Assembly: GCA_016840085.1 (NCBI GenBank)
Contig: JAEOTA010000045.1
Span: 1-36,272, forward strand
Source of the DNA: Promethearchaeota archaeon
Lineage (GTDB): Archaea; Asgardarchaeota; Lokiarchaeia; Sigyniarchaeales; SOKP01
DNA length: 36,272 nt
Direction: 5' to 3'
Shown: positions 14,932 to 35,547 of the stretch, one piece after another
Position numbering within the stretch: the first letter of the stretch is position 1
Layout: each line of letters starts with the position of its first letter
Notes under the pieces: generated by a model
Databases searched by the model: none
What the model was told of the DNA's origin: nothing
The model's input: only the letters and a program-made list of their open reading frames with translations
Program-made: the position numbers and the translations under genes

Positions 14932-15005
14932 CAGCTAATTTAGCACTAGCAAGACATTTATCGATAACTGCTTCAACACTATACAATCTTTCCTTCTCTT
15001 TTATA
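14932..15005 (-). repeat. Diverged internal fragment of arcC (copy of 16328-16401)
   Basis: Ungapped 74-bp match, 61/74 identical by manual count; encodes IKEKERLYSVEAVIDKCLASAKLA vs IKEKKKLYGVEAVIDKDLASAKLA. Confidence 0.9.
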
Positions 15006-15073
15006 GCATTTGAATAAAAGTTCTTTTAAAAAAATATTAAGATTTAATAATAAATTTTTTTTTTTCTTATATT

Positions 15074-16015
15074 ATGAAATTTGGATATTTTGTAAGAAGT
15101 ACGGTTTTTACTTATCCTGAAATAAGAGACTTATCAATTAAAGTAGATAAATTAGGTTTTGATTCGATTCATGTAAATGATCATTTCTTAGGCATGGATG
15201 CAAGGCAAGATAGAAGAGAACCGATGCTCGATGCGATGATGCTATTGACAGCATTGGCGGTGGAAACAAATAACGTAAAGCTTGGTCAAATAGTGTTATG
15301 TAATTCCTTTCGAAATCCAGCACATCTAGCTAAAATGATTTCAACATTGGATAATATTTCTAACGGAAGGGCTCTACTATGGATTGGTGCGGGATGGTTT
15401 CAGGAGGAATATAAAGCATATGGCTATCCTTTTCCTTCACCTAAGAGAAGAGTTGACGAATTAGAGGAATCTCTTACTATATATAAAAAAGTCTTTGCTG
15501 AAGAAGAGACAGACTTTAATGGCAGCTTTTGGACATTAAAACGCCACCGAAATTTTCCTAAACCAATTCAAAAACCGTATCCACAGATTGTAGTAGGAAC
15601 TACAGGAAAGAGAATGATTGATATTGCCTGTAGAGAAGCTGATGGAGTAAATTTAGATTTATGGTATGCCCCCAATATTGAGGATCTCCCACCAAGAATT
15701 TCTTATATTAATGAGAGACTAGAGCTACATAACCGTGATCCTTCTGAATTTGAAATTTCCCTTTTTACTGCCATTACTATTGTAAAAAGCCAAGAAAAAC
15801 TTAATGATCTAGTTGATAGGATAATAAAAAGAGTTCCTGGAGGTAAAAAACCAACCAAAGAACATATTTTAAAAAATCAATATATTGGCTTTCCAGAAGA
15901 TATAAAAGAGAAAATAGCAAGGTTAGAGAATATGGGTATCAAAAAAATAGTTACTTGGATCAGAAGATCTGATCTTGAGGATCCTATAGAGATTTTTAGT
16001 AAAAAAGTTATGTGA
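15074..16015 (+). CDS. LLM-class flavin (likely F420-dependent) oxidoreductase
   Basis: GFDSIHVNDH, FRNPAHLAK, LDNISNGR, GAGW, PKPIQKP. Confidence 0.88.
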   Translation: MKFGYFVRSTVFTYPEIRDLSIKVDKLGFDSIHVNDHFLGMDARQDRREPMLDAMMLLTALAVETNNVKLGQIVLCNSFRNPAHLAKMISTLDNISNGRALLWIGAGWFQEEYKAYGYPFPSPKRRVDELEESLTIYKKVFAEEETDFNGSFWTLKRHRNFPKPIQKPYPQIVVGTTGKRMIDIACREADGVNLDLWYAPNIEDLPPRISYINERLELHNRDPSEFEISLFTAITIVKSQEKLNDLVDRIIKRVPGGKKPTKEHILKNQYIGFPEDIKEKIARLENMGIKKIVTWIRRSDLEDPIEIFSKKVM

Positions 16016-16046
16016 TTTTTTTTTTTTAAATTAAACTAAATTTAAT

Positions 16047-16961
16047 TCAATTCTCCCTATATATATGAGTACCAGCTTTTCCAATTAATGCATCTTTAAT
16101 CTTTTCAATTGAAGTTATATATGCTTGTTCTCCACCAGTTTCCAAAAAATTGACTACTGCTTGAATTTTAGGTCCCATACTTCCAGCTGGAAACTGACCT
16201 TCTCTTAAATATTTTTTTGCTTTGGGTACTGAAAGTTTGCTAAAATCTTTTTGGTTAGAGGTTTTATAATTTATAGCAACTTTCTCAACATCTGTTGCGA
16301 TGAGAAGAATGTCTGCCTCTATTTGCTCAGCTAATTTAGCGCTAGCTAGGTCTTTATCGATTACGGCTTCAACTCCGTACAATTTTTTCTTTTCTTTTAT
16401 AACTGGGATACCACCTCCTCCACAAGCTATAACAATCCAGCCTCCTAACTCCATTAATCTTTTAATTTCACGCCATTGATAGATCTTTATAGGTTTAGGA
16501 GATGGAACAACACGACGATATCCTTTTGCTGTTTTTACATATCCGGGTTTCGGAACAGAATAAGCTGGACCGATAGGTTTAGTTGGATTATAAAAAGCTG
16601 GATCTTCTGGATTAACTTTAACATATGTCAGTACTGTAAGAAAAAGTTTTTTTTCATCAAGCCCTATTCTCATCAATTCTTCATCTAAAGTTGATTCAAT
16701 CATAAAGCCAATTTGACCTTGTGTTTCTGCCACTAAAATTTGTAAAGGTCTTTTTGTTACAGCCATTGTTGCTTCTTGTTGTAGTAAAAGATTTCCAACC
16801 TGAGGACCATTACCATGAGTTATAATTATATTATATTCTCTGGCTAACTCTGCAATTTGGCTAATTGGAACCTGTAAATTCCGAAATTGTTCTTCTGTTG
16901 TGCCTTCTTCGCCAAATCTAATTAAGGCATTTCCGCCGAGTGCTATTATTAATGTCTTCAA
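16047..16961 (-). CDS. arcC: Carbamate kinase
   Basis: ALGGNA, THGNGPQVG, PTKPIGP, RRVVPSP, GGGGIPV, EAVIDKD, GSMGPK. Confidence 0.96.
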   Translation of the reverse strand: MKTLIIALGGNALIRFGEEGTTEEQFRNLQVPISQIAELAREYNIIITHGNGPQVGNLLLQQEATMAVTKRPLQILVAETQGQIGFMIESTLDEELMRIGLDEKKLFLTVLTYVKVNPEDPAFYNPTKPIGPAYSVPKPGYVKTAKGYRRVVPSPKPIKIYQWREIKRLMELGGWIVIACGGGGIPVIKEKKKLYGVEAVIDKDLASAKLAEQIEADILLIATDVEKVAINYKTSNQKDFSKLSVPKAKKYLREGQFPAGSMGPKIQAVVNFLETGGEQAYITSIEKIKDALIGKAGTHIYREN

Positions 16962-17026
16962 TTAATAAACCTCTAGGTAAAATTACACAAAAGTAAATGA
17001 AAAATAAATAATATTAAGCTTATTAT

Positions 17027-17050
17027 TTAAAACTTTTCTCGTTAAAACAG
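17027..17050 (-). repeat. Possible remnant of OTC 3' end (copy of 21385-21408)
   Basis: 19/24 identical; reads LF*REKF* vs LFLRDKF*; sits just upstream of arcC; short and AT-rich. Confidence 0.45.
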
Positions 17051-17165
17051 TTCTTTTCTCAAACCTTAATATTCTCAATTCTCATTATAATGTTGAATGA
17101 TTTCAAATTATACCTAGTTTCTTCTAAAATACATAACTTAAATCTTTATCTCTTAATCAATGTAT

Positions 17166-34176: not shown

Positions 34177-34405
34177 CTATTTTAATTTACTTGATTCTTC
34201 ATTGTCTCTGAAAATAGTGTTAAACAGGTGGAAATCGTAACCTAATGCACCAATAATAACAACCTTCTTTTTCTTCATAGATATAAACTATTCTGATAGC
34301 CTTCTTTATGTTATTATAATAAGTAATTTGGGATTTGTTATAATAATTATAGATAGTATTATGAGAATGACAACCCTCCTATAAGTTCAAGCATGAAAAA
34401 TGTAA
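34177..34405 (-). pseudogene. Second arcE 5' end plus upstream region (33-aa micro-ORF 34278-34177)
   Basis: MKKKKVVIIGALGYDFHLFNTIFRDNEE then SSKLK*; upstream shares taatttgg, the GAG-N8-CCC motif and aagc..gaaaaatgtaa with 30546-30668. Confidence 0.9.
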
Positions 34406-34615
34406 GAATAATAATAGTTTTATTATTATGAAATCATTTTTGGATATTTTTTATTAAAAACAAAAACTCTATTAATTTAATATTAATTTTTGAATATAAC
34501 AATCAAGATTTTGATATTATCATCTATTTTGGTGAAATTTTTTTTATAGAGATTTGATAAAATATATATTTATTATTAATTCTTAATGATTTATTATATG
34601 ATTTAAAGGATAAAG

Positions 34616-34909
34616 GTGATTAAAATGAAGGATAAAAAAAGAATTAAAATTAAAGACCTAAAAATTAAAGTGGCCCAAAAAATGTACGACATGTATCGAA
34701 ATGATCCAAATCAAAAATTTTATGAAAAAGAATTTAAACAACTATTAAATGATGAATTAAAAGTTGAATATAATGATATCAATGTTCTAATGAAATATAT
34801 GCTAGAAAAAGATTATATTGTTTATCATCAGGATAGAGTGGAAACATCTCATTATTTTTTAATAACAGCAAATTTAATAGATTTCGTAGAAAATTTACCG
34901 AATGAATAA
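34616..34909 (+). CDS. Small hypothetical protein, possibly winged-helix
   Basis: 97-aa ORF; LMKYMLEKDYI...YFLITA pattern resembles a wHTH wing. Confidence 0.55.
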   Translation: MIKMKDKKRIKIKDLKIKVAQKMYDMYRNDPNQKFYEKEFKQLLNDELKVEYNDINVLMKYMLEKDYIVYHQDRVETSHYFLITANLIDFVENLPNE

Positions 34910-35080
34910 GATAATTTTGGCGGGGAATTTTTCGAATCGAGAATGTTTAGAAAGAAAGCCTGAGTAGTGGGGATCTTTAAATAATTCCCTAATATGTTCT
35001 TTAGAATAACCTCCTTTATTTGATATATCATCATTTGATAAAACATAAAATCATCTTCATATAAAACGGTGCGTTCTACC

Positions 35081-35320
35081 TCAGTAAAACCTTTTTTTTT
35101 GTTCTCCTGCAATAGTAAATGCTACTACTTCATATTCGTCATTGTCTTTAAAAAAAGTGTTATAAACATGAAAATCAGAACCTAATGCACCTACAATTAC
35201 AACTTTCTTTCTCTTCATAGATGTAAACCTATTTCATAGTATTCTTTCGTTCATCATATTATTTAATTTGAGATTTGTTATAATGTTTTTCGATAGTACT
35301 ATGGGGATAATAACCCACTT
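35081..35320 (-). pseudogene. Third arcE 5' end plus upstream region (45-aa micro-ORF 35218-35081)
   Basis: MKRKKVVIVGALGSDFHVYNTFFKDNDEYEVVAFTIAGEQ then a frameshift in an A9 run. Confidence 0.9.
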
Positions 35321-35400
35321 TTATGTTTAGATAATGAATATTATTTTTTTCCTTTTTACAATATGATCCCTTCAATTATGAAACTGAAACATAAAATATT

Positions 35401-35532
35401 TTATGTTTTAATAGAAAATTCTGGAGGTCGTTTACGTTTCATACTATCATCATAGCTATTTATCATTTTTTCAAAAAGTTCAGCACCTAAAGTTATCCTA
35501 TATATGGCCCTGTGTTTAGTTTCTCCTGTAAA
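35401..35532 (-). pseudogene. Diverged copy of the LAGLIDADG gene 3' end (copy of about 30705-30821)
   Basis: FTGETKHRAIYRITLGAELFEKMINSYDDSMKRKRPPEFSIKT* vs FTGEIIHRAAYRITLGVELFEKMIKSYDGSMKRKRPSEF*. Confidence 0.9.
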
Positions 35533-35547
35533 GAAGGAGAAACTAAA
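35515..35547. repeat. 13-bp perfect hairpin at the scar breakpoint
   Basis: TTTAGTTTCTCCT-GTAAAGA-AGGAGAAACTAAA. Confidence 0.85.

Follow-up and report, generated by a model that had tools for sequence, protein, structure and literature searches.

Relics of displaced gene ends beside cargo genes in a Lokiarchaeial operon: probable products of homology-facilitated illegitimate recombination

Relics and cargo in a conserved operon

The stretch of DNA analysed here (the window) is the entire contig JAEOTA010000045.1 (C37), 36,272 nt in length, of a Lokiarchaeia/Promethearchaeota metagenome-assembled genome (MAG) of 4.68 Mb in 89 contigs with 31% GC (G000; genomes, contigs and loci are given below by our own G, C and L labels). 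It carries a minus-strand operon, kept throughout the genus, for a 446-amino-acid protein, aldehyde:ferredoxin oxidoreductase (AOR), a 694-amino-acid Fe-S flavoprotein, a DAO/SoxB-like oxidase, an OTC-type carbamoyltransferase and carbamate kinase (arcC), and arcC is convergent with a class-III aminotransferase gene. In most congeners the aminotransferase gene abuts arcC, arcC abuts OTC, and the flavoprotein gene abuts AOR; in the window, extra genes, here called cargo, are found at every junction from the aminotransferase gene through the gene upstream of that for the 446-amino-acid protein. Beside this cargo lie short, diverged copies of the neighbouring resident genes, which we call relics, and how these arose is the subject of this report. 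Gene families were assigned with Pfam and NCBIfam profiles, and some gene names given in an earlier, sequence-only reading of this DNA had to be dropped. The gene called pdhA encodes the 694-amino-acid flavoprotein, a SoxA-like protein with Pyr_redox_2, 2Fe-2S and 4Fe-4S domains, and the name arcE is unsupported, the 446-amino-acid protein having no Pfam or NCBIfam family; the latter is referred to below as the 446-aa, or 'arcE'-like, gene.

Self-BLASTN and a repeat finder recovered all six same-orientation repeats that the sequence-only reading had listed, every one of them direct, and placed each relic at a distance of ~1.0-4.3 kb from its intact counterpart, with unrelated genes lying in the interval. 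Nearest the aminotransferase gene, an arcC relic (14932..15005, minus strand) lies upstream of a cargo gene for an LLM-class oxidoreductase; it aligns with 16328-16401 over 74 nt at 82% identity (E 5e-13), corresponds to codons ~187-211 and contains no stops. This copy is real but is not the extreme gene end, being an internal piece that begins at a recombination breakpoint. Just upstream of arcC, a relic that comprises the OTC stop and the ~8 codons preceding it (17027..17050, minus strand) is shared with G061, the closest genome found. It had been listed as weak and is short (~21-24 nt, with 3 mismatches in 21 nt) but genuine: both this relic and the true OTC end at 21386-21409 align to the single OTC-stop/arcC junction of relatives, which is present once in G018 and L022.

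Directly behind AOR lies a native relic of the flavoprotein gene (26753..26927, minus strand), made up of the original spacer and the first 126 nt of the gene, with a 1-nt deletion and two stops. The repeat to which it belongs (25519-25710 and 26753-26945) is 74% identical overall and 85% identical over an 85-nt core. On either side of the insert at this junction stand direct repeats of more than 30 bp, which the empty site of G061 has as a single copy, and no mobility gene accompanies the insert.

Two relics are stacked upstream of the 446-aa gene. Relic U1 (34194..34441, minus strand), directly upstream of a radical SAM cargo gene (radical SAM B), spans the promoter region of the 446-aa gene and the gene's first 82 nt, in a frame that is open as far as the joint, and the repeat 30464-30703 and 34194-34441 is 69% identical. 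Relic U2 (35097..35533, minus strand) comprises the 3' end of a LAGLIDADG gene (35415-35533), followed by the spacer and by the 446-aa gene up to nt 119 (35097-~35220); it matches 30427-30822 as a single contiguous unit, at 83% in blocks. The two also match each other (34194-34667 and 35134-35589, 65%), and they end within 37 nt of each other with respect to the 446-aa gene. At the outer edge of U2 (35501-35561) we observed a perfect inverted repeat of 13 nt with a 7-nt spacer, a reverse copy of the relic's first bases, which could have formed by snap-back or by templated insertion when ends were joined illegitimately, or could be a hairpin behind the upstream gene.

Relics of this kind are not confined to the window. 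A genome-wide count of local gene-versus-intergenic pairs, a check that had been proposed together with the six repeats, gave 47 direct and 4 inverted pairs, a rate of about 10 per Mb, and 1.17 Mb of related loci gave 55 direct and 2 inverted pairs; because direct pairs are in such excess over inverted ones, chance does not explain the repeats. G061 itself carries a 150-nt relic of the OTC 3' end, which in 40-nt windows is 82-92% identical to the window's intact OTC end and 74-80% identical to G061's own, and G005 carries two relics of the 3' end of the 446-aa gene. In G002 (L138, G002:C11 7296-11117), an OTC 5' fragment and, after it, a DAO 3' fragment lie between DAO and OTC, in repeat pairs of unequal identity (88% and 69%), and this permuted partial tandem duplication is the expected product of a one-sided or single-crossover event. 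The promoter region of the 446-aa gene is duplicated 0.7-5.8 kb upstream in at least 8-10 loci, including one in CP070831.1, a record titled as a chromosome. That same record (G006) has a 713-nt 5' piece of the alanyl-tRNA synthetase (AlaRS) gene (659630-660342) at 1.3 Mb from the main match (1980601-1981644), with overlapping gene coordinates, and this piece could be either a distant relic or a split gene.

Ancestry of relics and of resident gene ends

Divergence profiles were computed with G061 as the reference. The bodies of arcC, the flavoprotein gene and AlaRS are ~3-4% diverged from G061, and their ends and spacers 15-35%, with sharp switches between the two. In arcC (16047..16961, minus strand), mismatches to G061 reveal diverged tracts over the 3' ~350 nt and the 5' ~155 nt, so that divergence runs from ~17% (16047-16392) to 3.4% (16393-16805) and back to ~22% (16806-16961). 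Dense mismatches end at 16392, and the two that follow come at 16419 and 16512; with the relic edge at 16401, the switch between 16392 and 16419 provides the breakpoint that had been predicted at the scar boundary.

The flavoprotein gene (23571-25655) begins with a foreign tract of ~470 nt (25188..25655, minus strand) that has 15-33 mismatches per 100 nt to G061, compared with 1-5 per 100 nt in the body, and that extends past the relic end at nt 126. G061 has one AOR/flavoprotein junction and lacks the zinc-ribbon gene that stands there in the window. The spacer and first ~45 nt of the gene are nearly identical to G061 in the relic behind AOR and unlike G061 in the working copy, which identifies the former as the native end and the latter as the one that arrived with the cargo. 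The synteny comparison with cargo-free relatives that the sequence-only reading had proposed thus shows this empty site and cargo that is missing in relatives. At three other relic loci in the genome, G061 gave no collinear match for determining polarity, the regions being variable.

A switch was also seen at the 446-aa gene, for which L011 is the informative relative. Identity to L011 is 94% over the first ~300 nt of the gene and 84-88% thereafter, and other relatives show the reverse gradient. In sliding windows, an L011-like tract (30327..31425, minus strand) takes in the 3' two-thirds of the intact LAGLIDADG gene, the intervening spacer and the 446-aa gene as far as nt ~220, at 90-99% identity (86-88% across the spacer, 30527-30725), reaching past the relic ends at nt 82 and nt 119; outside it, the rest of the 446-aa gene is 80-90% identical to L011 (mean ~86%) and the DNA further upstream 70-80%. 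On contig C14, nt 1-210 of AlaRS are 69% identical to G061 and 89% identical to G034/G056, whereas from nt 211 on the gene is 96% identical to G061.

The sequence-only reading had argued from an excess of synonymous differences that both versions of each repeat were once coding and under selection, which would fit foreign alleles better than decay of fresh duplications. To place this on a quantitative basis, pN/pS was calculated by the Nei-Gojobori count for relic versus intact copy. Values were 0.18 for the 446-aa and LAGLIDADG coding parts of U2 each, 0.15 for U1, 0.19 for the arcC relic, and 0.17 for the AlaRS relic on contig C14 (141 codons). The flavoprotein relic, with its frameshift and two stops, gave 0.77. 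Four of the five window relics thus lie at 0.15-0.19, compared with 0.99 in a neutral simulation on the genome's own genes with the same estimator, and a copy that was identical at first and then decayed is expected at ~0.55 or above. Pooling 44 pairs from the whole genome gave a pN/pS of 0.33 and a dN/dS of 0.24.

Phylogenies agree with this. The intact 'arcE' start (E0) groups with L011/L012 (support 100/99), the start in U2 (E2) with L048/L015 (100/83), and that in U1 elsewhere. The approximately unbiased (AU) test rejects monophyly of the three 'arcE' starts (p=6e-5) and also each relic paired with the intact copy (p=8e-4 and 5e-3). For AlaRS, the intact 5' end groups with G034/G015 (98/99), the relic belongs to another clade that is also well supported, and relic and intact gene as sisters are rejected (AU p=0.017). 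Relic and intact end are therefore not sisters at the 'arcE'-like and AlaRS loci, as the replacement model predicts, and none of the three 'arcE'-like starts is G061-like, all being 73-79% identical to that genome. The substitution pattern, the AU tests and the foreign character of the intact ends together favour foreign alleles over decayed fresh duplications.

Several relatives carry the same cargo without a relic: radical SAM B lies directly upstream of the 446-aa gene in L021 and upstream of AlaRS in G013, the LAGLIDADG gene lies upstream of the 446-aa gene in L011, and the LLM gene adjoins arcC in G040/L022. Such relatives had been named in advance as evidence against homology-anchored insertion; they do exist, but they look like donor-type arrangements rather than counter-examples. 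With L021 as a stand-in donor, the joint before radical SAM B could be mapped: the match to the 446-aa gene ends at nt 82, that to L021 begins ~75 nt ahead of the radical SAM start codon, and the two overlap by 3 nt (AAT) at ~34185-34197. The donors are related species, at 75-90% identity, and not strains; the earlier proposal of a homology-anchored integration of cargo is supported, its related-strain source is not. A candidate for a second genome sharing the U1 relic, G004:C124, was discarded; its hit trails off in AT-rich noise, and homology stops ~40 nt before the start codon.

A one-sided recombination model and its alternatives

We think it probable, on this sequence evidence, that homology-facilitated illegitimate recombination (HFIR) with DNA of related species displaced the gene ends now seen as relics, and the process resembles ordinary one-sided recombination more than the work of a new mobile element. 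DNA from a related Lokiarchaeon, in which an accessory gene already adjoins the same conserved gene, would enter the cell. One end of the fragment would pair with the conserved gene body and be exchanged by the host's homologous recombination, and the other, non-homologous end would be joined illegitimately, with little or no microhomology, just inside the recipient's gene end or spacer. The expected product is the old end (the relic), the cargo, a foreign spacer, and a foreign end fused in frame to the resident body. If the joint lands in a segment that donor and recipient have in common, the recipient's copy would stay behind as a relic. Only products that rebuild the gene would survive, and inserts would for that reason gather at the ends of conserved genes. 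Relics with a promoter and start codon may persist by driving the cargo gene. How the DNA enters, which enzymes act, whether a chromosomal break or incoming linear DNA sets events off, cleavage by the endonuclease, and the use of relic promoters by cargo are inferred parts of this scheme.

Repeated events would stack relics, giving the three layers before the 446-aa gene, which can be put in order. The oldest would be an allele with the decayed LAGLIDADG 3' end (U2). An insert with a 97-amino-acid open reading frame (ORF) and a new start (U1) would then have been joined at nt 119, followed by radical SAM B with another start, joined at nt 82, and the intact LAGLIDADG block would have come last. 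The left joint of this block would lie ~51 nt behind radical SAM B, and the block would consequently have left no relic.

Several points weigh against the HFIR reading. The arcC relic and the intact copy are almost equally close to G061 (89% and 90.5%), and G061 and G000 have different arcC relics, for which extra events are needed. The OTC repeat of 21-24 nt and the decayed flavoprotein relic hold too little information to argue against duplication at insertion. The AAT overlap at the only joint that could be mapped is no more than is expected by chance in DNA of 31% GC. No DNA match to a donor of the zinc-ribbon cargo was found in 53 congeneric genomes. In AlaRS, the exchange point (nt ~210) lies inside the span of the relic (to nt ~470), and this locus fits a single linear HFIR event only if the block of relic and cargo was later moved by two-sided recombination. 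All genomes compared are metagenome assemblies.

AlaRS is also the place at which the best-surviving alternative does well. In a Campbell-type single crossover, a circularised fragment of related DNA would integrate by one exchange, duplicating the shared segment around the cargo. The resulting geometry is the same as that observed, integration of circular DNA by such pop-in events is efficient in archaeal genetics, the AlaRS relic fits, and the permuted fragments of G002 may fit too. However, the exchange must then lie inside the repeat, and it was found beyond the relic in the flavoprotein gene (~470 versus 126 nt) and in the 446-aa gene (~220 versus 82 and 119 nt), and at its edge in arcC; in addition, the relic behind AOR looks native throughout and not hybrid. 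Since the exchange point lies beyond the relic end, linear HFIR rather than a Campbell crossover is indicated at the flavoprotein and 446-aa genes, and the Campbell route is unlikely except as a minor contributor.

Prophages and islands use the ends of tRNA genes or icd as attachment sites, and the relics could in the same way mark dedicated mobile elements that attach at gene ends, supply a replacement end, and rely on a recombinase acting in trans or of a novel family. Direct repeats do flank cargo at gene ends, and in several contexts the 5' boundary of radical SAM B falls at a similar place, ~35-45 nt ahead of the gene's start. The 3' limit of that unit, on the other hand, varies by 300 nt across contexts, the repeats range from 21 to ~690 nt without a shared core, and the targets are many unrelated genes. 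As the sequence-only reading had stated, neither recombinases nor terminal repeats could be found: Pfam and NCBIfam scans of the cargo ORFs revealed no recombinase, and around four cargo blocks there were only weak AT-rich inverted pairs. A genome-wide search with PF00589, PF00239, PF07282, PF01609 and PF00665 gave no match on this contig; the genome totals were 2 tyrosine-recombinase, 0 serine-recombinase, 10 TnpB, 2 DDE_Tnp_1 and 1 rve matches. Only one of the 47 intervals lies within 1 kb of any such gene (a DDE gene), and none contains one. We consider elements of this kind very improbable.

Equally improbable is the idea that the target was duplicated at insertion, so that two initially identical copies diverged in this lineage. 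The published bacterial cases are characterised by direct repeats that empty-site genomes match with a single copy (PMC2853133), the flavoprotein relic shows the high pN/pS, frameshift and stops of a decaying copy, and the arcC relic, the intact arcC and G061 are about equidistant. Against this, most pN/pS values are far below the neutral 0.99, the relics are 60-90% identical compared with 94-100% in the published cases, and the intact ends are themselves foreign relative to G061. For the 'arcE'-like and AlaRS relics, duplication was rejected on the basis of pN/pS and the AU tests, which reject sisterhood.

That co-occurring strains' or species' alleles were strung into one contig by the assembler is scarcely credible: the sequence is a metagenome bin with 7.6% marker 'contamination' and the three 'arcE'-like starts resemble three species, but the flavoprotein and AlaRS relics are broken genes (frameshift or stops), the joints lie inside genes with no shared k-mer linking them to cargo, the same type of relic occurs in many independent assemblies from different studies, including the chromosome-labelled record, and the bias towards direct over inverted pairs is extreme.

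HFIR, the reading we prefer, is not a new mechanism, since there are published bacterial precedents. It was shown in naturally transformable bacteria (de Vries and Wackernagel, 2002; Prudhomme et al., 2002; Meier and Wackernagel, 2003; cited in PMC5361080). There, and on our model also here, one homologous anchor and one illegitimate joint with little or no microhomology trap foreign DNA beside conserved sequence without any enzyme of an element. The bacterial process was demonstrated by experiment and ours is read from Asgard sequence alone, and here the joint often falls within the recipient's copy of sequence shared with the donor, hence the relic. HFIR has also been proposed for the orphan arrays at type VI secretion system (T6SS) effector-immunity, Rhs and contact-dependent inhibition (CDI) loci (PMC5361080). 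In these displacement arrays a module likewise brings a new gene end, the old end is pushed downstream as an orphan, and orphans stack. They differ in that they concern polymorphic toxin genes, involve 3' ends only, and are kept by selection for immunity, whereas the targets here are metabolic or housekeeping genes (arcC, OTC, AlaRS and others), and in the window 5' promoter ends are displaced as often as 3' ends. Restriction-modification units insert without a recombinase and with long target duplication, the repeats being 94-100% identical, and no archaeal case was retained (PMC2853133). That process (Nobusato et al., 2000; Furuta, Abe and Kobayashi, 2010, PMC2853133) resembles ours in direct repeats of more than 30 bp, variable repeat lengths and the lack of a recombinase; here, in contrast, the copies are 60-90% identical alleles of differing ancestry and the cargo is not restriction-modification. 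Integrons, which have been reported in Archaea (bioRxiv 10.1101/2022.02.06.479319), have in common with these loci that promoter-less cargo accumulates step by step behind a resident promoter. They differ in that there is no IntI on this contig (the two tyrosine-recombinase matches are elsewhere) and the repeats are gene ends, not attC sites. Literature searches for such a process in Asgard archaea or Lokiarchaeota returned nothing relevant in the library searched.

A wider and more doubtful possibility, which we raise only tentatively, is that recombinase-free, one-sided homologous recombination with DNA of other species is a main route of gene gain in Lokiarchaeia, with conserved genes as landing pads, gene ends and promoters continually overwritten by foreign alleles, and displaced promoter relics reused for new genes. 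Continual overwriting would fit the contrast between 3-4% divergence in the sampled gene bodies and 15-35% at gene ends. If so, the archaeal lineage nearest to eukaryotes would often exchange DNA between species and have an active end-joining pathway, and homing endonucleases would now and then drive the process. The window shows gene gain without a mobile element in an Asgard archaeon at the level of single bases. Since the ends and promoters of core genes differ in history from the bodies, single-gene trees and average nucleotide identity (ANI) values are mosaics. Short 'orphan' ORFs or fragments beside core genes are often relics and not genes, and slots for accessory genes are predictable from the conserved neighbours. 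The stacked relics provide a readable order of events, and the locus offers a candidate homing endonuclease together with three natural target alleles.

A probable homing endonuclease and the cargo genes

The intact LAGLIDADG gene (30702..31826, minus strand) encodes a 374-amino-acid protein that is probably a free-standing homing endonuclease. It matches LAGLIDADG_3 over one half-domain at 21.9 bits, just below the cut-off of 22.5, and its ten best Atlas clusters are all LAGLIDADG_3 (score 0.93); a PDB sequence search gave no match. An ortholog at the same site was found only in G064/L011, and the family occurs in 29 of 54 congeneric genomes, with at most 7 matches per genome and many of these with internal stops. 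Some relatives lie inside open frames of 900-1350 amino acids, which suggests that they are putative intein-borne copies.

Free-standing homing endonuclease genes, such as the seg and mob genes of phage T4, home with co-conversion of their flanks, and classical homing leaves no scar. Goddard and Burt are said to have described, in 1999, a cycle of invasion, decay and loss for homing endonuclease genes. The gene in the window shows the patchy spread and the high-identity tract over both flanks that characterise homing, and the cycle is further matched by an intact LAGLIDADG-type gene beside an older, decayed 3' relic and by broken relatives. Unlike in homing, older alleles remain here, the other four sites have no endonuclease gene, and the Pfam score is marginal. 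A homing endonuclease is nevertheless a plausible source of breaks at the 'arcE'-like site: it would probably supply the double-strand break there and spread with its co-conversion tract.

Radical SAM B, which neighbours this block, forms a unit at 33082..34185 (ORF 33207-34127, minus strand). A second copy, 93% identical in amino acids, lies on contig C14 (2944-5686, L091) between the ~470-nt AlaRS 5' relic and the intact AlaRS, and copies at 86-94% nucleotide identity are found at unrelated loci in at least 8 congeners. The best family match is of PTO1314 type, far below the cut-off, so that no precise family can be given. Several assemblies break inside this gene, and partial copies in G012, G005 and G018 were rejected as relics, being merely contig ends. 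The cargo between U1 and U2 (34472..34900, plus strand) includes the 97-amino-acid ORF (34616-34909), which had been described as winged-helix-turn-helix-like; it has no support from any protein family. An 88% match to this cargo was found at an unrelated locus in G003.

Between AOR and the flavoprotein gene, the cargo block (25656..26752, plus strand, GC 26-28%) consists of a zinc-ribbon gene (26014-26661), identified by weak DZR/Zn_ribbon matches, and a foreign spacer before the flavoprotein gene. No match to the zinc-ribbon protein was found in the relative loci fetched or in its own genome. The arcC/OTC block (17166..21382) holds a further radical SAM gene (A; 17166-18089, minus strand), a GH2 hydrolase gene (18223-19938, minus strand; Pfam), which the sequence-only reading had called uidA, and a gene for a 324-amino-acid membrane-like protein (20408-21382, plus strand). 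This cargo is missing from most relatives. In G061 (L136, G061:C81 1-5864), the GH2 and membrane-protein genes lie between arcC and OTC in another order and without radical SAM A, and a further insert of ~4 kb lies between OTC and DAO.

The aminotransferase gene directly adjoins arcC in more than 25 congeners. In the window, the two are separated by a block (14489..16015, plus strand; Pfam, NCBIfam) with an MFS-like gene fragment (14489-14923) and the F420/LLM-class oxidoreductase gene (15074-16015), the latter being found among relatives only in G061 and G040/L022. The 144-amino-acid ORF at 14489-14923 corresponds to no more than part of an MFS-type transporter (196-289 of the 347 profile positions), and its DNA has matches of 66-70% at unrelated loci in other genomes, from which it appears that gene fragments also travel as cargo.

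The product of the 446-aa gene itself (29205-30545) has its sole PDB sequence match in cyclic 2,3-diphosphoglycerate synthetase (9sxb_A, E 0.049), a faint likeness. With proteins of Thermovenabulum, Fervidicola and Methanomassiliicoccales it shares 54-57% identity, and its relatives come almost exclusively from Promethearchaeota/Promethearchaeia MAGs.

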